DNA of 64,000 nt, from positions 155,055-219,054 of the IMG/VR virus record IMGVR_UViG_3300037851_000284; one strand, 5' to 3'. The position numbers and the translations under genes were made by a program. Source of the stretch: a virus (Duplodnaviria; Caudoviricetes). Under the pieces are notes generated by a model. It worked only from the letters and a program-made list of their open reading frames with translations. It was not told the origin of the DNA and did no database searches. Numbering within the stretch: position 1 is the stretch's first letter; each line of letters starts with the position of its first letter. Positions 1 through 64,000 of this stretch are shown one piece after another.

Positions 1-3000
1 ATTTCCTATCCAATTGTGATGAACCAAAGCTTGGTATACTTGTAGTATAGTTAGAATATATAAGGTTCGGCTTTGTTTTCCACTCATTTAACAACGGGTT
101 AGAATTACTATAAGAGTTCTTTAAGATATTATTTATTATATTACTACGTTGTTTTTTATCATTCATTTTGTTTAATCGTATAAATGCTTCTTTTGAGAAG
201 GAAGCATTAACGGTGTCCAAAGGAACCCGTCTATCAAGTTCTAAATCAGATAGTATTCCGTTATGATTTCCATTAATATCAGAACCTAAATCAACAAACC
301 CGTCTAGAGGATTTAATGAATTAGACATTTGGTTTGGTCTAAAAAAATTAGCAGCTAGAAATACTGCCGCTCCTATAGCTCCAAATTTTCCAGTAGTTTT
401 AGTAAAATTAATTGCTCTAGGATATTCTCTTAGAATCCTTGATCCAAAGCTTTCTGCTGCCTCATTAAAATTAATGTTTTCATAAGGCTCGCCTATTTTA
501 AGTTTATCTAATATACTAATAGCTTTATTCAGTTCTGTTTGTTCACTAATCCAAGCCTTTGATTCTCCCTTTGTTCCAAACTTTTGATGATATTTTATTA
601 TTCCTTCAGTTAATAGTTGATGAGCCTTATCTCTTTCTTCGTTTGTTTCAAAATAATCAGATAAGATATCCTTTAACGCTAAACGTGTCTCTGGATTTTT
701 ATTATATGGATTTGTTAATGCTGCTACTGCTAAAGAAATTCTCTTAATTTTATCGACTCCGTGCTTAATCATGCTAATTGGTAGTTGTTCCATTCCAGCC
801 AATCCAGTAGTTAATGATGTTCCTATAAACTTATTTAAAGTAAGAGTGTTATTTTTAGATAAGCTATCCATCTGCATTATTTGTCTACCTCTGGTTTCTA
901 ATATATTTGTGAATATACCAACTGCTCTTTTAGAAACAGACATCAAGGCTGATTCGTCCACCATCTTTTTAACTATATCATTAGTAACTACACTTGGATC
1001 CCTAGTTGAAATTTTTTCAACCATATCTATTAGATTTCTAAAGTTTCCTTTAATAGCATCTTCTGCGTCTTGACTTCCTAGTTCTACGGTTTTCTCGCTA
1101 ATTCTTCCCGTTTCTCTATCAAAATATCCAACTCTAGCTTTTGAATTTTCAAAACCAATAATTTTTCTTTGTTCACTTATAGCATCTCGAACCGTTTTAA
1201 ATTTACCGTTCTCTTTTATCTTAGTATTTAATATATCAATAAATGACCTGTTAACAGATTCGTGTAAGTTTAACAATTCTTTTTCTGTATTAAAAGCATG
1301 TACCACTCCAAACATTTGGTCTCCGTCAACGTCTCCTCCAACCAACTTCCAATATTCTGCAGCAACTGCTATTCTATTAATATCCATTCCAAAATAACTT
1401 GCTATTTCTTTAGGAACAACATTGAATCTAGCTGTTAAAAAAGGATTGGTTCCAGAAGGAGTATAAGGAGGACGAGTAATAAAACCAGTAAATTTTCTAT
1501 GCATCCATGCTCTATTTTTAATTTCAGAACCGAACACATTACTTATTCTATCATAAAAATTTTTGGTTTGGAGAAATTCAGATTCTTTAACATCAAATTC
1601 GAACTTTTTAAAAGTTTCTTCATGAACCATAACATCATGTAGTGAAAAGTCATTAACTACGTTTCTAGTCCACTTATCTAGAAACTCTGCGTGCTTTCCT
1701 TTAAATCCTCTTGCTCCCCAACCTTCAGAATCCATAATATCTTTAAGTCTTAAATATAAAGAATTAGCATCTTGAGCAGAAGCAGCAAACCCTTGAGGAA
1801 GATGGAGGTCTGTTTCAGAATTATATACATGCCTTAGTAAATATGTAAGATATTGTTTTTTAAGGAAATCTACAGATTCGCCAACAACCTTAGAATCTTC
1901 TTTTTTCATATTTTTTTCTGCCATCATATATGCAAGAAGAACATCATCCATTAATTTAGTACTTCTGGTAGAAAATCCAAAAGCTGTTCCCTTTTTATTC
2001 TCCTTAGATACTAAGTTAATAACATTTTCGTGATGAGCAGGAGCTTCCATTAAAAGATATTTTAATTTAACAGTCTTATTAGTTTTATCAACTTCTGCTA
2101 CAAAACTATCTTTCTTTTTCTTTAGTTTATCAAAGATATTTAATACTTCATCCGTAGATGGCAATTCGTCTTTTGTGGCAATTTGATGTAACAAGCTCTC
2201 TATATCTAGAGTTATTGTATTACCTAATTTAGGATTAACTGATAATGCAAACACTCCTTTCTTTTGAGCTAACATAGCTCTTTGTTGCGCCGATTCTAAA
2301 GACATAATAGTTCTGTTCTTGGGATCTATTACGGCTTTAGCAAAATTATCATTCTCCATATCATCAATTATTTCTCCAGCAACCTTTAACTTTTCTTCTT
2401 CAGAATTCTCATTAATAATATCAGATACTTTTTCAATTAATTCATTTTTTTCATCGTCTCCAAAATTATATCTTTTAAGTGCTTCTAACGATAATCCTTT
2501 TTTAATATCTAATATATCATCTATCTCCTCCAGACTTAACGTTTTCATTGTGCCAATATTAATCATTTTTAACTGGAGTCGCCTAAAGGATCTAATAGCA
2601 TCTCCAAGTTTACCAGATATTCTATGTGCTCTAGCCATTTCTATTATCTTTAAAGAAGTAGTATCTAATGCTCCCAGATGGGCTTTTTGTAATATATTTC
2701 TTCTTACTTTTATACGCGCGGGTCTAGCTTCAGTCCCATTCATTATAGCATAAAAACTAAATCTATCAGGATGTTCTATTCCTATATCCCATTTTCCTCT
2801 ACCTTTATATTTCTGTCTTGCCTCAAATAACATAGGAACTAATTTACCTGTTCTAATAGCTTCTAAATCCGGTAAGATTAATTCATTATAGAAAGTATTA
2901 TCGAAAGCTTTGTCCTTAAAAACGGCGCTAGCCAATCTAGCTGATTTGTTTTCGTCTTTAGATATTTCTTCAAGATAATTATTATATATGTTGCGTATGT

Positions 3001-6000
3001 TCTTTTTAGCGTTTTCTACTCCACCTAAAGCATTATAATAATTTTCTGCCCTTTCTGTCGTCCAAACTTGTCCAGTATCGATCATGAAAGATCTTAATTC
3101 TTCAGTAGTTAGAGAAACGTTTCCAAAGAATTTATGAGCAGCATTAATCAAATTAACATCAGTAACGTTAGGAAACGAGCCAAGATGCGACGACCGATGT
3201 ATAGGTATTTTGGTTATATCATGTATATCGGAATTCATCTTTGCCGCCCAATATTTAAGCTTTTGTTCGGCTACTACTTGTTCTTGAATAGTACCGTTTT
3301 CCATTACATTCAGCAAGTGGTCAAATCCCTTCATAACAGTAATGGTTTTCATTGGTCCAACATAACCCTTCTCTAGAAACTGGGCTGGACCAAATCCCTG
3401 CACTCCACCATACATTTTTTCTCGGGTAATCATATCCATGAATACAGATACTGCTTTACCACTAAGTCCTTTACCAACCATTGATACCCTATCTTTATCC
3501 GTGATAACATATTTGATATCAGCCATCATTTTAATAGAACCAGCACTATCATTCCAGATATTTAATTTAGTAATTCTTCCATTAACAGGAGCATTAAAAC
3601 TAATTTTTCCCAAATCTCCTCTCGAAGCCATATACTTTGTTCCCTTTGGAATTTTTGTAAGTCCTTCGTTTTCCTGTATAACTTCATAAGCCGCATAGTC
3701 ATAATCGTCCTTGGTTAGAGCACTACCTTTTTTACTTTTAATTACTCTTAACTTTTCTTTAATCTTTCCCTCAAGTTTAAGAACTTGATAATTAAAACTA
3801 GGATCCTCGGCCCTAGAAGAAACATCAGAAAGATTAACTCCTATATCAGTATGCTCAAGATTAACATCTTTAAATATTTCAGAAGTAAGATGATGTCCTC
3901 CTTCTTGGCTTCCAAAGTTAGAAATAGTTGAAAAATATTTTACCATAACTGTATTACTAAATAAATGAGTCATAGCATCTGCGTCTCTGCCAAAACTCAT
4001 AAAGTCTAATTCTCCTCTAGATATCCATGGAGGGATAATCTTACGGGCATATTTTCTTAACACGAGAGGATCTAATCTTTCATTCATGGATTTGCTATGT
4101 AGACCAGCGACTACAGCAGAAGTTCCCATCATAAATTGGTTAGCTTGTTTTGCTGGAGGATAATCTGGAATGGGTAAAAAATGTCTAGTAGTAAATATAG
4201 AGAAAGCATATTTAGCCGCTTGACCAGAAGATAATGCTGTAGAAGAAGGAATAAATCCAAATAAGTTTGTCATTTCTATATCTCTAGCATCTTTTATTTG
4301 GTCGTCAAACGACTTAAATGCGTGATAAGAATTATATTTATATTCTAACTCTTCATATGCCGAATCAAATTGTTTTTTTCCTTTATGATATTTTTCCAAT
4401 TCGTGACCTAATAATAAATGTAATAACATACTGTCGGTTCCAGCATCGTGAGCAAATAGAGTTTTGTCATTATTTAATTTTTTTAATAAGGCAGTACTAA
4501 CCACTAAATTACTTTGTGGTCTACCTCTCAAAGTATTTATTGCTTCTATAATATTATTACTTGTTTCAAAATTATGAGCAGATAAACCTTTTTCTTTCAT
4601 CATTAGCTTTAATAAATTAGTTTGAGACAATGACTCTACTCCACCAACCACTACTCTATTAATTTCTACAATTCCATGAACGTCTATATGACTAATATTA
4701 GCATATTTTTTAAGTTTGCTAAAACCGATGGGGTCCTTAGATTCTAAAATTTCAAGCATTTTGAAATCGTAATAGGTTCCGAATTTAGAAGTAAGATATA
4801 TAGGTTTGTCAGGATTTTCTTCAACAACCCTGATTATTTTTTCTACCAAATGTCTTGCGATATCGTTGTTATCTTTAAAATCTCTTCCCTGAGTTTTTGT
4901 TAACGATTTTATTTTTTCTCCCCATTTGTTAATAATATCTTCTGGGGATCTACCTCTTAATTCATTTTTTTCTTGAGCACTAAGATATGTATCTCTTATC
5001 CATTCTGCCTGCTCCATATCAAATGGAAGCTCTTTCATTTTATCAACACCGTGACTGCTAAAAAACTTTTGCATATCATGTAAAGTTACTTTTCCAGTAG
5101 AACTAATATCTGCCACTGAAAATCCAGCTTGAGTTATTTGTGTATGAGCGTCAGTTATTTGAACATTGGGACCAGCTTTCTTATTAGAAATAGTTTCTAA
5201 GTCCACACTTATTACCAGAGCCCCATCAGTTAATCGAGCTAGTCTTTTGAATCCTTGTAAGTCTTTTAGGTTATTACCCCATTTTAATTTATTAGATACT
5301 CGCTCATCCCTATAATAAAACATTCCTTGTTTTATTGGGTCTCTATTAGTTGTTTCGATTCTACTAGCAACCTCAAGAGTATCTCTCATTATAAAATTAA
5401 ACCTACTAAAAGCATGTTCTGGGTTATATTTAAAATCACTAGATAGATTGCTTTTTATATACCTAATCAAATTTCTTATAGTAGCCTGTGTCATATTCAT
5501 ATAAGGCATTTTTTTATTTATAGGCGCAGGGTCAGGAATCTTAACATCATATTTTTGAACTCCATATGGAGATGTTGCTGGTAATATTCCATATTGAGCC
5601 AAAGGAATATTTAAAACTTTTTCTTTCCCTCGAGCAACGTGTTTTGCTGAAAATCTCAAATAATATCTGGGACTCTCCTTAGGACCATCTTGAATTATAG
5701 CTAAACTATGAGATTCAAATCCATTATCTTCGGTAGCTATTTCTTCCAATGCTGCCATTAAACTTTTAATATCATTGGTATAATCAAATTCTCCTAATAA
5801 CTTAAATTCTGGCGTAATTGGAATAAATTTCCTACTATATAGAGATGAAGATGTTACTGGTTTTCTTTTTAGTTCTTCGTTTGATAATACGGTTTTAACT
5901 TTATATTTATTTATTTTCCCAATATAGCGAAGATTAGCTCCTATATTTCTATTGGTTTCTCTAATATTTGTATAAAGCATTAACTGTTTTGTTATTTCAG

Positions 6001-55931: not shown

Positions 55932-56013
55932 CTCATATAAATATACAATAATATTTTAATTATAAACTGGTGTAAAACCTTCATGACTTCTCCTCTAGAA
56001 GTGTAGGTATATA

Positions 56014-56042
56014 AATATAATATATTACCGATAAAAAGTCAA
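56014..56042 (-). promoter_or_regulatory. Sigma70-type promoter driving the leftward block
   Basis: TTGACT-17-TATATT, within CTTGACTTTTT...AATATATTATATTT. Confidence 0.7.
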
Positions 56043-56318
56043 GAAAAATTTTATAAAAAGGCCTTCGCGCGTAAATTTTCTATAAAAATTCTATAAAACA
56101 ATGATATACAATATTTTCCTTAGATTTTTCCTAAAATAAGCGTTTTTTATAAAAATTTTGGCGGAATTTGGTTTAGTGATAAAATAGCTGAAAAAGAGTG
56201 TTTATTAGAGAAAAAGGGTATGAGTACGAGGTATCTTTATTTCATGAAATTTGAAATTTAGAAAGTTACGAGGTCACTGGGGTCATTTTATATCACTTAA
56301 CCTTTTTCAAGGAGGTCT

Positions 56319-56393
56319 TATGTATTGGTTGATTCTTTTTGCTTTTGTGGCTTGTTTTGTGTTATATATTAAGTTTTTTGTTACTATACGTTA
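56319..56393 (+). CDS. 24-aa hydrophobic peptide
   Basis: AGGAGG RBS; MYWLILFAFVACFVLYIKFFVTIR*. Confidence 0.5.
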
Positions 56394-56731
56394 GTAACAA
56401 GTATTAAAGTGTTATGTTAGCCCAATATACAGGGATATGTATATATTAACTAATTATTAATCTTATTATTAGGAGGATCATCATGTATACAGTAAAACTT
56501 GTTGGTCGTTTGCTTATTGTTAGTAACAGCAACGGTATGGTTGGACGTATGCGCAAATATACATCTAGACAGATGGCTATTAATAAGTTCTTTATTATAG
56601 CTGAGTATCTAGATAATAAGGGACTCTTATCCAGTGCTTCATGTATTGAGGCATAGTACTATATAGTCGGCCTTAGTATGCAAGGCACGCATACATTACC
56701 ATAATAACTCGTAGTTATATAGGAGGTTAGT

Positions 56732-56926
56732 ATGTCTAAGTATCTTGTACACTGTGATGGTTGTGGTATGCCTACTGTTGTTGATAGCCCTTATAATTTC
56801 ACTTGTACTAATTGTGGTTATCAGACATGCACTATTGATGAGAAACCTACACCTGTTATCGGCAAAGAACTTGCTGATTTCTGGGAAGATGTCTGGCTTA
56901 ATGGTTCCGACAAAGTCCAGGAGTAG
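56732..56926 (+). CDS. Zinc-ribbon mini-protein
   Basis: GGAGG RBS; CDGC...CTNC. Confidence 0.65.
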   Translation: MSKYLVHCDGCGMPTVVDSPYNFTCTNCGYQTCTIDEKPTPVIGKELADFWEDVWLNGSDKVQE

Positions 56927-56932
56927 AGTCAT

Positions 56933-56975
56933 CGTAAGTTTATGATAGTTCTTACGTTAAAAGAAAAACTATCGT
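56933..56975 (+). promoter_or_regulatory. H-type pseudoknot motif, copy 1 (leader of the 450-aa gene)
   Basis: S1 CGTAAG(56933-38)/CTTACG(56951-56); S2 ATGATAGTT(56942-50)/AACTATCGT(56967-75). Confidence 0.6.
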
Positions 56976-57002
56976 TGCGATAAAAACTTTATAGGAGGTT
57001 TT

Positions 57003-58355
57003 ATGTATAAGGCTAATATCGCTTTGATTAAGGCGGCCATCCTAGATTGGATGGAAAACAAGATGTTCTCAGCGGGTGTAACTCGTTGGGATACTGATGC
57101 TTTTGAGCCAATTACTTTCAGGGTCAAGAAGTATTTTGATCCTGAGTTGGGCTGCGTGGTTAGCATGGCTCGCAACGCGTGTTGTAACCGTCTTGAGGAA
57201 GCAGGATTGTACATGGATGACGATCCTGTAACCGAACACGTCAGATTTGTTTCGAATGACCCTAAAGATTATTTCGAAACAGAAGCTTATCTAGACTCTT
57301 GGCATTGGTATGTGTGTCCTAAGTGCCACGAGAAGTATTCAGAAGAGGAAGTAATGGCTGATAACAGGTATAATCACGATTATACTCATTACAACAAAAT
57401 TGAGGCAGCAACGGATTTAAACGCACCTCATGGTTGGGATGAGATGGGTGAACCTATACCTGTTGATGAAGACCACGACCCAAGAATACACGTTGGTTAT
57501 AATACATTCAAGGAGGAAATTAACAACGATGAAGGCGATATTGTTGTTAATGAAAGCAATTATATCGACGGGTATGACCGGACGCCTTGTGAAGAACACA
57601 CAAGACTTAGCAAAGGTGTGTATCGCTTATTGCATGGCTGGCTTATGTTTCATAGGCCTGATTATGCGAAGAGGGTTATTAAGAAGATGTGGGATGCCTT
57701 GGAATATAACAAAGTATCACCACAAAGGATGTTAGAGTTATGTGACATATTCAAAGACAAGGGATGGTCTAGGATACGCGGAGAGTTTGCAAGGTCCAAG
57801 GAGAAGATAAACATGAAAGAAGTAGAAAAGGAGGTATTGCGTTATATGGCATTCGGTGCTTGGAATAGGCCTAAGCCTGTTACAAAGAAGAGCATCGTTA
57901 AGAAGAGCAACATATCTAGAAGGAGGTATAACAGACGGATTATATGGAAGTGGATGAATATTACTGGTATTTATAATACTAGCAAGATTCTGAAACTGTT
58001 GAGAAAACTTGATTCTATGGGGCCTAAAAAGCCCCATTCTAAGGTTTTCTGTATCCACACGTATCCTGCTACTGCTTCTATGCGTGAGGGTATTGTAATC
58101 ATGGCATCGTGGGATGGTAAGTTCCATGACCATGGCTCTAAATACATACTCGGTAATGACCATATTGATAAGTATGTAAAAGAGATTAAAAGCAGTGCTA
58201 TTAAAGCCGGATATACCATTATTGAGAAGAATATCTCGGTAGAGGTATACCGTAAGTATGCTTCTAGACCCTTATATAAGGTTGTGCGTAACCTTATATA
58301 TGCTGGTAAATATTGGGAGTCTGTTAAGTCTTCTGAATTTGCGTGCTTGCTTTAA
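57003..58355 (+). CDS. Hypothetical early protein with a CPKC motif
   Basis: 450 aa; GGAGG RBS; acidic middle, basic C-terminal half. Confidence 0.7.
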   Translation: MYKANIALIKAAILDWMENKMFSAGVTRWDTDAFEPITFRVKKYFDPELGCVVSMARNACCNRLEEAGLYMDDDPVTEHVRFVSNDPKDYFETEAYLDSWHWYVCPKCHEKYSEEEVMADNRYNHDYTHYNKIEAATDLNAPHGWDEMGEPIPVDEDHDPRIHVGYNTFKEEINNDEGDIVVNESNYIDGYDRTPCEEHTRLSKGVYRLLHGWLMFHRPDYAKRVIKKMWDALEYNKVSPQRMLELCDIFKDKGWSRIRGEFARSKEKINMKEVEKEVLRYMAFGAWNRPKPVTKKSIVKKSNISRRRYNRRIIWKWMNITGIYNTSKILKLLRKLDSMGPKKPHSKVFCIHTYPATASMREGIVIMASWDGKFHDHGSKYILGNDHIDKYVKEIKSSAIKAGYTIIEKNISVEVYRKYASRPLYKVVRNLIYAGKYWESVKSSEFACLL

Positions 58356-58363
58356 TCTGATAT

Positions 58364-58406
58364 CGTAAGTTCGTGTAGGACTCTTACGTTAAATACAAAG
58401 TCCTAC
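58364..58406 (+). promoter_or_regulatory. H-type pseudoknot motif, copy 2 (leader of the PcfJ-like gene)
   Basis: S1 CGTAAG(58364-69)/CTTACG(58383-88); S2 GTAGGACT(58375-82)/AGTCCTAC(58399-406). Confidence 0.65.
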
Positions 58407-58439
58407 TTTTATTATTTATATTATTTATAGGAGGTTTCT

Positions 58440-59696
58440 ATGCGTACATTTGTATTTAAACTGTTTGTTAAAGGAATGTTTCCTTTTACTCTGGTGTTTG
58501 ATAAGATGGGATTATTATTAATATCCAACTCAAAGAAGTTTGTTGATAGAGTTTCACGCAGTACGGAACATAATGAATTATATTGGAGCGAGTGGAATAT
58601 AATCACGCTTCGTTACATATTCAGTAATGCCTTCACTTTTCCAAAGAAGGCAAAACTCGCAGGACTAACTGGAAAATATAGGAATCTAAAGATTCAAAAC
58701 GAGATAAAAAGGAGAATGAAACTTGTATACATTCAGTTCTTCTCAGAGCTTGATATGCTCGGAGTCCAGAAAAGATTACGTCTTAATGAAGAAAATATGT
58801 TTGATCTAATGATACATATTCTAAATGGTAGTATTCCCTACCCTAAAGACTTAATGAAATATCCGGCAGGATATGCAAAAAATCTTGTATTACATCCTAT
58901 GGACTGTTTTAGTAATAGTCTAAAGAAATGTAAATATCCAATTAAAATATATAATACAAATTCGTATTGGCACCAACTATGCCAATCAAAATGGAGTTGG
59001 TTAATGTATGTTCTATTAGAAGAACGTGTACAATATGTTGGAGAAGATTGTATTAAAAATGCATATAAAATGTTAATTAAAATGGGAAAGAACGAATTAA
59101 CTTTTCTTAAGAAGAAAGGAGTTATACAAGATATAATGGCCTGTCACCGCAATACTAAGCTTGTGTATCATTACATGATGGATTATTGGTTTAATATATC
59201 ACATGAAGAACTGATAACTTGTATATATAATAGAAGTATTATAGAAAATATCTCTCGTGCGATTAAATGGCATAAGGAATGTGAACTAATAAAAGAACGT
59301 GAGTATGATTATCCTATGCCTAGAAATGAATGTCCTGATGAATTAGAACAGTATAGAATTAAGACTAGAATTGATATGATTATGGCAGGGCGAGAGAATC
59401 ATCATTGTATTGGAGGATATGCTGATCCTCATAGTCCTTATATATTCTTAATCAAAGGCTCGGTTTGTGCCCAGTTAGTTAAGACTACATCTTCTGTGTA
59501 TGTTAACAACGAAGATATACCAGTATTAAGTATAAGACAATGTTACGATGCTTGTAACAAAGAAACACCTGAACAACAGAAGTTTGTTAAAAAGATAAAC
59601 TCTATATTAGATAAGGAGGCACAAAAAACAGCAGAAAAGTGGAATAAGGGTTGGAGACCAAATCGTATTGATGAAGGACAAACAATGAACTTTTAA
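58440..59696 (+). CDS. PcfJ-like domain protein
   Basis: C-terminal YRIKTRIDMIMAGRENHHCIGGY...IRQCYDACN matches the PcfJ pattern (L..EG..m.HCVg.Y...Q..g..N). Confidence 0.65.
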   Translation: MRTFVFKLFVKGMFPFTLVFDKMGLLLISNSKKFVDRVSRSTEHNELYWSEWNIITLRYIFSNAFTFPKKAKLAGLTGKYRNLKIQNEIKRRMKLVYIQFFSELDMLGVQKRLRLNEENMFDLMIHILNGSIPYPKDLMKYPAGYAKNLVLHPMDCFSNSLKKCKYPIKIYNTNSYWHQLCQSKWSWLMYVLLEERVQYVGEDCIKNAYKMLIKMGKNELTFLKKKGVIQDIMACHRNTKLVYHYMMDYWFNISHEELITCIYNRSIIENISRAIKWHKECELIKEREYDYPMPRNECPDELEQYRIKTRIDMIMAGRENHHCIGGYADPHSPYIFLIKGSVCAQLVKTTSSVYVNNEDIPVLSIRQCYDACNKETPEQQKFVKKINSILDKEAQKTAEKWNKGWRPNRIDEGQTMNF

Positions 59697-60272: not shown

Positions 60273-60522
60273 AATCTGGTTATCCTTTCTCCCTCACATT
60301 GGTGGACAGTACGAGCATCATCGTCCTTACGTATTAAGAGAATGTTCTCAGATTATCGTTCATATTGGTAACGCCATTCGGCGGCATCCTTATAATAAAC
60401 TTACTCTCAATAGGAGGTCTATCATGCGGTTCTATGGCTGGTGGTTTTGCAAAAACATGTGCAAAGTGGTCTAAAAAGACCAGCAAAGAAATATAACACA
60501 CCCATTCCAAAGAGGTAACATT

Positions 60523-60726: not shown

Positions 60727-61055
60727 TCTGATAAGTGTTATTAATATTAACATAGGAGGACTCGTGACATTCGTCATCAAGGGACACAGCGTTAAAGCAG
60801 CTCCGCTCAGCGAGTTACTGAGCAAAGTCACAGTATCAGACAAGACTCCGGATATGTTCAAAATGCTTGCTAACTACCAAACAAAATCAAAACTGGTAGT
60901 GAAAAAGAGCAAGAGGAATAAGTCCGATAAGTGATTTTAACCTCCTATAAAAAGGGTGGGATTTCTAGACGAATAGAGTCCCACCCACGAAAACAAAGGC
61001 TCTGTACATCGAATGATTACAGGGTCTAGTATATAACTCACTATCCAGAAAGGGG

Positions 61056-61529: not shown

Positions 61530-61578
61530 AGGCCCAAGACCCATAATCGCTGCGCGCGAAGAGGACTTGGGCCTTTTT
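61530..61578 (+). terminator. Terminator after the GC-rich gene
   Basis: AGGCCCAAG...CTTGGGCCT followed by a T run. Confidence 0.7.
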
Positions 61579-61671
61579 TACTTATAGAGGAGGCTATCAG
61601 ATGAGTACCATATTAACGCTTATCGAAGACTTGTTAAATGGCATTCTAGATATCATCAAAGGAGATCAATC

Positions 61672-62058: not shown

Positions 62059-62786
62059 TAAAATATCTCAATCCGGCCTATGTAATATTTTCTGTAAGTG
62101 ATTGATTTATATATAAATCTTTTTTAAGGGTTTATTATCTGTCAATCTCTTCACGTGGAAATATATACCATATATAGTATTTTCCCCCTTGAGGGGGATT
62201 AAGGGGGTGTTATATATTCACTTTCTCCCTCTTTCTTTTACCCGTCCTTTATTAAAGAAACGAGTCCCTATATGCAGGAAGACATAAACAATAAGAAAAG
62301 CTGGCTACCAGCTATAAAAAAGTATGCGAAAAAGAAAACACGAAAAAAGGTAAGTAAAGGTAAGTAATTGATTAAAAAACAAATACCCAAAGGAGGATAT
62401 ATGTATCTTATCATTGGCTGTTATATATTATATATAGTAGCAGTAATAGTAGCATTATCATTTATGATAAATGCTACTAGAAGAGAAATACCAAAGAAAG
62501 ATGATAAGTGACTGATTTTACTAGGTACATAATACAAATATAACATAAATGTATTATATATCTTCTAGATACCTAAATAATTAATATTAATGAAGCGTAC
62601 CGATGGATAGTTACTTTCTGTAGAAAGTAAGCAAAGACATATTAGAAAGGATTAATAGTGTTATAATTATAGTTTTATATGGTTACCATCCTATTAACCC
62701 CTGAAAAGGGGAGGAGAGGGAAAGAAAGAGAAAATATATCCGATTAACTGAATTATATATCATTTAATATCATCAAAGGAGTATGT

Positions 62787-63731: not shown

Positions 63732-64000
63732 CTCCTTTCTTTATTCAATTTAATGCTGTTTTATAATTTATAAGGAGTTTAATGAAAATAAGCCTGAATG
63801 AGATAATCGATGCTGTGTATAAAAGTGACCTATCAGTAGATAGAGAACTGTTTACCGAAGCACTAAGACACGGCTATACTCATAAAGATGTTCTAGACGT
63901 ACTCAGTCAAAAGGACAGCAAAAAAGAGAATTCATCTGATCAATGAATGTGAGGGTTTAATCAAATATTGTTTCCCTCACACAAACCTAATCAAAAAAAT

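Follow-up and report, generated by a model that had tools for sequence, protein, structure and literature searches.

We describe here a small structured RNA, an H-type pseudoknot, that occurs twice in a 64,000-nt stretch of phage DNA (the window, which forms the end of an IMG/VR phage record of 219,054 bp and 33% G+C). Both copies lie on the plus strand: copy 1 (WIN1, 56933..56975) precedes gene A (57003..58355, +), a conserved early orphan of 450 aa, and copy 2 (WIN2, 58364..58406) precedes gene B (58440..59696, +; 418 aa). The label "early", applied throughout to the genes of the rightward arm, is plausible. About 13 further elements were found in at least nine uncultured phage lineages, each adjoining a gene of the A family, which in all the relatives lies beside the pseudoknot. 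As judged from sequence, the structure and conservation of this family of H-type pseudoknots are well supported, and the motif is taken to be a previously undescribed structured RNA family that is limited to one small clade of large phages from uncultured sources. As to its role, we tentatively favor, with a probability of about 0.45, that the sense-strand knot is an intercistronic boundary element, which would serve as decay barrier and insulator at the early cistron junctions beside gene A.

Anatomy of the two window copies

Elements are written in the order S1 / L1 / S2 / L2 / S1' / L3 / S2' (S, stem; L, loop), with a hyphen for an L2 of zero length. WIN1 reads CGTAAG ttt ATGATAGTT - CTTACG ttaaaagaaa AACTATCGT, with S1 at 56933-56938/56951-56956 (6 bp), L1 at 56939-56941, S2 at 56942-56950/56967-56975 (9 bp, one of them a U.G pair) and L3 at 56957-56966 (10 nt). 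WIN2 reads CGTAAG ttcgt GTAGGACT - CTTACG ttaaatacaa AGTCCTAC, with S1 at 58364-58369/58383-58388 (6 bp), L1 at 58370-58374, S2 at 58375-58382/58399-58406 (8 bp) and L3 at 58389-58398 (10 nt), and is followed by a U/A-rich tract. Each copy was equaled in 0 of 200 shuffles. A preliminary description of this DNA had reported the common S1, the empty L2, the 10-nt L3 and the differing but paired S2, and its sequences and coordinates proved exact.

The significance of the copies lies in their sharing one frame (S1, L2 of zero, L3 of 10 nt) while carrying unrelated yet paired S2 sequences, together with the existence of relatives; by our own estimate, the joint chance of a shared frame with differing, paired S2 is about 5e-7. 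The pattern CGTAAG-N5-25-CTTACG is present twice in the window against 0.04 expected, and CGTAAG-N12/13-CTTACG is restricted to the two copies in the whole 219-kb genome. Folding limited to nested pairs selects S2 and is unable to display the knot. In a rough pseudoknot energy estimate, the knot is more stable than the best nested fold by 3.5-5 kcal/mol, and the same holds for two pseudoknots of the transfer-messenger RNA (tmRNA) encoded by the phage. Rfam gave no match at the gathering score in the window, and none at E<=10 on the elements (56850-58500).

The 5' end of the knot lies 6 nt (copy 1) and 8 nt (copy 2) past the upstream stop codon, which for copy 1 is that of a 64-aa Cys-rich open reading frame (ORF; 56732..56926, +), and 70 and 76 nt 5' of the ATG. 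The 3' end is separated by 18 and 24 nt from the GGAGG and by 27 and 33 nt from the ATG; the earlier figure of about 25-35 nt upstream of GGAGG is thus only approximate.

Relatives of the element and covariation of both stems

Word-based searches with A, B, a 202-aa ORF and a 128-aa ORF returned nothing, or the L033/L116 phage alone (L-numbers denote loci of relatives, with their own coordinates), whose ribonucleotide reductase is 88% identical and whose A orthologue is very divergent. The element of this phage (L033 4179-4147, -; CTAG ttta AGATAGTT - CTAG tcaaa AACTATCT) lies 11 nt past the stop codon of the A orthologue and has the same topology. It forms a bridge, combining the S2 of WIN1 and the 5' flank and position of WIN2 with the S1/L3 type of the other phages; its S1 is exactly two base pairs shorter than in the window copies and its L3 has 5 nt. 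A profile of A and this orthologue, searched against 1.84 billion proteins, yielded 15 family members, and the relatives were located in this way via gene A, independently of the RNA motif. All fetched A-family contigs but L243 share one layout, in which a divergent region and a handful of small ORFs precede the A gene and junctions of 65-150 nt follow it; L243 has a tight operon without spacers and no element. L235 is identical to the window and added no information. Cultured phages gave no blastn match, and A-family proteins are absent from them. The conservation in related phages on which the first proposal of a motif depended was found beside the A-family genes.

Every element starts 5-22 nt past a stop codon, and this stop codon and the neighboring gene A are the constant features across phages. 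The element stands immediately upstream of A in the window, L247 and L246. The genes downstream of the elements are not homologous between phages, and in L033, L244a, L241b and L259d the next start codon lies 85-150 nt from the element, with other junction motifs between. The earlier placement of the knot in the leaders of the two largest early genes is only partly right, since across the relatives the downstream gene varies and may be that far off.

The elements of L241 parse as CCAG t TGGCAG gt CTGG tcaaa CTGCTA (L241a, 2060-2087) and CCAG t TGGCAG at CTGA gaaaaa CTGCCA (L241b, 2536-2564, one S1 mismatch), and those of L242 as CTAG t TGCTAG at CTAG ttaaaa CTAGTA (L242a, 2464-2492) and CTAG tt GGCAG at CTAG tataaaa CTGCC (L242b, 2802-2830). 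L244a (5439-5465) reads CCAG tt GGCAG gt CTGG tcaaa CTGCC, L257 (3773-3799) reads CCAG tt GGTAG gt CTGG tcaaa CTGCC, L247u (2930-2959) reads CCAG t TAGTAGAT - CTGG taaaa ATCTACTA, and L245a (1988-2013), which is cut by the contig end, reads CCAG t TAGATGCT - CTGG tcaaa AGCA. L246u (333-363) and L259d (3470-3503) read AAGGT gta GTCTAC t ACCTT aaagt GTAGAC and AGTC att TAAGGGTT g GACT ataact AACCCTTA, respectively. A second subtype, with S1 CTCT/AGAG and L3 tagc, is found in L247d (4269-4296) and L259u (2437-2463), with S2 sequences that differ and are paired, and again at the first L244 junction with L3 taat. Both window copies and the 13 elements of the relatives have the interleaved S1 and S2 on the sense strand, the preceding stop codon and the neighboring gene A by which the family is defined. 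In the family as a whole, S1 has 4-6 bp, L1 1-5 nt starting with U, S2 5-9 bp, L2 0-2 nt and the usually A-rich L3 4-10 nt, for a total of 27-43 nt. L3 length tracks S1, with 10 nt where S1 has 6 bp and 4-7 nt where it has 4-5 bp, as the need for L3 to cross the groove of S1 would predict.

The family holds six S1 sequences and more than ten S2 sequences, complementary throughout save for the L241b mismatch. In a MAFFT alignment of seven relatives (A6), 88.6% of the cells are paired, against 17-43% with a slid partner, and this paired count is lowered by the row of L242a, which is one column out of register. At one S1 pair of this alignment, four sequences have C-G where the other three have U-A; three core pairs of S2 are altered on both sides, and the covariation score was reached by 0 of 500 shuffles. 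The alignment of the window copies with L033 (A3) is 100% paired, with four S2 pairs altered on both sides. When each of the six S1 types is represented once, the 5' flank pairs (at least 4 bp) solely with its own loop, which only 1 of 720 permutations equals.

The fold belongs to the sense RNA, because in the reverse complement a loop of 1-5 nt would have to bridge a helix of 8-9 bp. Moreover, the G.U pairs of WIN1, L241a, L242a and L257 are A.C mismatches on the opposite strand. Among 57 early-arm junctions of these phages, the topology was found at p<=0.05 in 15 on the sense strand versus 6 in the reverse complement; as a positive control, the topology scanner recovers all four pseudoknots of the phage tmRNA. 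The latter are alike in topology and of similar sizes, but belong to a stable non-coding RNA and not to an mRNA junction, and have no sequence relation to the elements. With compensatory changes in S1 and S2, G.U pairs on the sense strand and no Rfam match, the earlier idea of a new cis-acting RNA motif with covarying stems is borne out.

An exact-motif scan of IMG/VR (S1 plus TTAAA) gave 29 matches, which is the chance level, none with a paired S2, and a scan with the S2 of WIN1 (the query being one A short) gave 116 matches, all chance hairpins apart from the L033 phage. A covariance model built from the relatives (R1) recovers the truncated L245 copy with 28 bits and nothing else.

Several observations weaken the case. 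R1 fails to retrieve the window copies, so that these are included on account of topology, position and the L033 bridge; on these sequence features they are regarded as a divergent, enlarged subtype, tied to the others via L033. S1 is identical in both window copies. The short versions of the relatives (S1 of 4 bp, S2 of 5-6 bp) are individually weak against shuffles (p 0.02-0.2), and some CTAG-rich L242 junctions permit alternative pairings. Taken singly, a generic interleaved topology (S1>=6, S2>=8) means little in this AT-rich genome, with 10 cases observed versus 12.5 in dinucleotide shuffles.

Possible roles at the cistron border

Since the stop codon and gene A are constant and the downstream genes vary, we read the knot as a boundary element. 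The start of the knot so close behind the stop codons, the lack of homology among the downstream genes and the use of canonical terminators elsewhere in the operons are also counted for this role. The knot would act in cis on a polycistronic early mRNA, as a compact structure immediately behind the terminating ribosome. Once the AU-rich linker has been cut, exonucleases would be stopped at the knot before they reach the flanking cistron, and the knot would also keep the next initiation region clear of upstream pairing. The outcome would be that gene A and its neighbors are expressed and stabilized independently, and reuse of the junction cassette beside differing genes may favor gene shuffling. 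RNase III sites between the early genes of T7 and SP82 are intercistronic processing and stability elements. In plastids, an intercistronic expression element is a structured RNA at a cistron border (PMC2230500). Both are cistron-border RNAs on polycistronic transcripts, thought to give stable, separately translatable units, as proposed here; however, they are long imperfect hairpins or protein-binding sites, whereas the present element is a small knot known from sequence.

The AU tract and the regulated gene characterize the operator of T4 gene 32, in which an A+U-rich tract of UUAA(A) repeats extends from the knot to the ribosome-binding site and the gene encodes the single-stranded DNA-binding protein (SSB). 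This operator is an H-type knot about 40-70 nt 5' of the start codon, and a review considers it perhaps the sole viral pseudoknot known for translational autoregulation (PMC3014915). We find it unlikely that the present knot is of this type, so that an early phage protein, possibly A, would bind it, occlude the AU-rich ribosome-binding region and repress the next cistron. Like the operators of T4, T2 and RB69, it is an H-type knot with coaxial stems in a phage mRNA, located about 70 nt 5' of the start codon (70 and 76 nt in the window versus 67 nt in T4; PMC3014915), and in copy 2 this distance and the unstructured AU tract that follows would suit a protein-bound operator as well as a boundary. 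Besides, the elements always accompany gene A and are in three cases (window, L247, L246) directly upstream of it. A U/A tract is seen after copy 2, copy 1 and several relatives having none. However, the downstream genes vary, and in L033, L244 and L241b a distance of 85-150 nt separates the element from the next start codon. The genes that would be regulated are the orphan A, the PcfJ-like B and unrelated small ORFs, none of them an SSB gene, which lies about 5.6 kb further on; on this point the analogy with gene 32 drawn in the preliminary description fails. There is no sequence similarity to the T4 operator, and the sequences of S1, L3 and S2 vary so widely that little is left for sequence-specific recognition. 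Also different is the tie to an upstream stop codon and gene A, with one or two copies per genome at differing junctions. Protein A has no recognizable RNA-binding domain; it had no match in Pfam, PHROG or PDB and no usable Atlas match, and its AlphaFold model has a predicted local distance difference test score (pLDDT) of only 53. A control module dedicated to RNA-protein interaction or ribosome sensing, made up of the knot and the orphan protein A, is likewise doubtful.

A U-rich run follows S2 directly in WIN2, L241b, L242a, L242b and L247d, and such a tract after about half of the elements would also suit an attenuator. In a translation-sensitive leaky terminator, S2 and the U-tract would end some transcripts, and a ribosome that stops 5-14 nt upstream and covers S1 would weaken the knot and let the polymerase read on; the short and fairly constant spacing from the stop codon does set S1 at the edge of the terminating ribosome. 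This explanation is nevertheless quite unlikely, as a U-tract is missing from WIN1, L033, L244a, L246u and L259d, the stems are short and AU-rich with loops of 9-16 nt, and there is no space for a new promoter ahead of the next gene. Elsewhere, after a conserved 142-aa gene, these operons do employ genuine GC-rich terminators with U7 tails (window 61531-61579; equivalents in L241, L242, L244 and L259). An ordinary intrinsic terminator would also be a hairpin just past the stop codon, with a U-run as seen here in about half of the cases; it was rejected because a terminator scan gave no call, the stems are short, weak and not GC-rich, and the loops exceed the 3-8 nt usual for such terminators.

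The S2 hairpin could be functional alone, as a generic 3' stabilizer or processing signal, with the S1 complementarity incidental or reflecting a palindromic protein-binding site. Such an account draws on the invariance of S1 in the window, on its length of just 4 bp in most relatives and on CTAG being self-complementary and repeated, but it is very unlikely in view of six S1 sequences that each pair with their own loop alone (1/720 permutations), of the C-G to U-A exchange within S1 and of L3 being longest where S1 is longest. Moreover, S1 accounts for the unusually large S2 loops.

A role at the DNA level, either as a promoter for a phage RNA polymerase or as the boundary of a recombination or regulatory cassette, is highly improbable. 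N4-type promoters are DNA hairpins with a stem of 5-7 bp, a 3-nt loop and conserved bases, used with a T7-like single-subunit polymerase; the present element does not fit this type, since its loops have 9-16 nt, the helices are interleaved and G.U pairing is kept on the sense strand only. The N4 comparison would also concern another type of polymerase. More generally, the compensatory changes and G.U pairs indicate RNA and are unexpected for a DNA promoter, and with one or two copies per genome the structured promoter proposed earlier is not supported. In favor of a cassette, gene order around A is shuffled, because B-like ORFs stand upstream of A in L241 (146-556) and L245 (95-454), where they are homologous to part of gene B (31% identity), whereas B is downstream of A in the window. 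T4-type phages offer a precedent (PMC4122927) in their promoter early stem-loops (PeSLs), short conserved regulatory cassettes of a terminator stem-loop and a following sigma-70-like early promoter, which lie between the early ORFs of plastic regions, have been linked to gene shuffling (PMC2839356, PMC4122927) and are likewise reused beside differing ORFan genes. The present element, however, is a covarying pseudoknot and not a simple terminator hairpin, its copies are few, no sigma-70 promoter consensus or promoter-like match was called in or after it, and the 18-24 nt before the Shine-Dalgarno sequence are too short for a promoter. In addition, its exact motif reached only the chance level in IMG/VR, without S2.

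A small-ligand riboswitch is hardly credible. The compact H-type knot with an A-rich L3, possibly lying in the S1 minor groove, does recall the preQ1-I and SAM-II types, but Rfam gave no match up to E<=10, and the element has no conserved ligand pocket and no invariant core, S1 and L3 differing in length and almost every position being variable; the Shine-Dalgarno sequence is outside the knot and not sequestered, and the flanking genes are orphans and not metabolic. The ligand sensor first considered is unlikely for the same reason, namely the variation in core sequence, S1 length and L3 length. Other identities were rejected outright: programmed readthrough or frameshifting (no slippery heptamer, spacers of 5-22 nt versus 5-9 nt, and 18 and 25 codons to a second stop without fusion to the next gene), a pistol ribozyme (a likeness in P1 followed by UUAAAUA, with no Rfam match and no P2 or P3) and a ToxI-like type III toxin-antitoxin system (the elements are not tandem repeats).

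Junction sequences and neighboring genes

In five of the junctions read out in full, the next ATG lies 27-40 nt 3' of the knot and is preceded by a U/A-rich linker, a box of sequence AAACTTTAT or TTAACTTTA and a strong GGAGG; in about half of all elements the knot is followed by a U/A-rich linker, an enhancer-like box of the AAACUUUAU type and GGAGG. The box lies just 5' of GGAGG in the window (56984-56992), L241 (~2105), L242 (~2843) and L257 (~3818), and it resembles the "epsilon" translational enhancer of T7 gene 10. Ahead of gene A, the linker and ribosome-binding site (56976..57002, +) comprise AAACTTTAT (56984-56992) and TATAGGAGGTT (56990-57000); ahead of gene B, a U/A-rich linker leads to the same TATAGGAGGTT (58426-58436, within 58407..58439, +). 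This unusually strong site is shared with the 64-aa ORF (56718-56728), and TATAGGAGG has only four occurrences on the plus strand of the whole genome. Such strong GGAGG sites suggest, on sequence grounds, a host relying on Shine-Dalgarno pairing.

Other short motifs recur at these junctions. CTCCCTCA(A) is found just past stop codons across the clade (window 60289-60296), directly 3' of the knot in L033, L244 and L259, and at other junction starts in L241, L242 and L247; its RNA is complementary to GGAG/GAGG and could be an anti-Shine-Dalgarno-like junction signal. A second motif, TTATGTCTGA(T) with the variants TTTGTCCGA and AATCTGATA, has eight copies in L033 (~2040-4075, -), recurs in L247 and L259-L261, and lies in the window at 58355-58362, 60727-60734, 60923-60930 and 62739-62746, frequently ~10-75 nt 5' of a ribosome-binding site. 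It may mark a site of processing or be a promoter for a phage polymerase. The TTTATGTCTGAT motif of L033 was rejected as a shared promoter, its exact form being absent from the window. A conserved hairpin, GTTACTTT-loop-AAAGTAAGCAAA, occupies long early intergenic regions (window 62610-62636; L033 ~4040-4015 and 3085-3060, -). Finally, a third interleaved repeat, GCCTT/AAGGC with GTATGC/GCATAC (56670..56694, +), is found at the preceding junction; its L3 has only 2-3 nt, which makes a true pseudoknot sterically doubtful and its membership in the family uncertain.

The genes of the window run leftward up to ~55931, and a rightward arm starts at ~56300 and runs past the end of the contig into its start; the pseudoknots lie 0.6-2.1 kb inside this arm, amid small orphan genes. 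Between the two arms, the divergent intergenic region 55932-56320 carries repeats of TTCTATAAAA and TTTATAAAAA (56050-56155), which could be promoter or origin signals. Gene B has a weak PcfJ-like C-terminus and its position is not kept in the relatives. A and B are not paralogues; paralogy was therefore rejected as the origin of the repeated pseudoknot, which is not a by-product of gene duplication. The SSB gene (PF00436) is the next gene just past position 64000 of the window, as seen in a Logan contig; the contig break falls at its start, and a hairpin with an 18-nt loop (63949-63980) is located in its leader. Outside the window, the phage tmRNA (G000:C1:20981-21330; L118 82-431) matches Rfam RF00023 with 74.8 bits and its tag reading frame ends in ...AEYAYQLAA, and ARAGORN gave no call for it. 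Also on the rightward arm outside the window, repeated T-loop-like GGTTCAAATCC sequences (G000:C1 ~10.7-28.3 kb) point, by sequence, to a tRNA gene cluster. Nothing resembling the pseudoknot was seen there, and a relation to the integron-like hairpins described for that region was rejected. By its terminase, the phage is closest among cultured phages to Bacillus phage 0305phi8-36, with 28% identity.

Meaning for phage early operons

Structured cis-acting RNAs of phage early operons are scarcely charted beyond T4 and T7. The knot, at 27-43 nt, offers a short and easily synthesized object for studying how early mRNAs are partitioned and stabilized, and it is a possible compact insulator part. 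If the knot and protein A indeed form a module, it would set expression at early cistron borders as a phage post-transcriptional switch of a new class, and would travel between phages as a mobile junction cassette.

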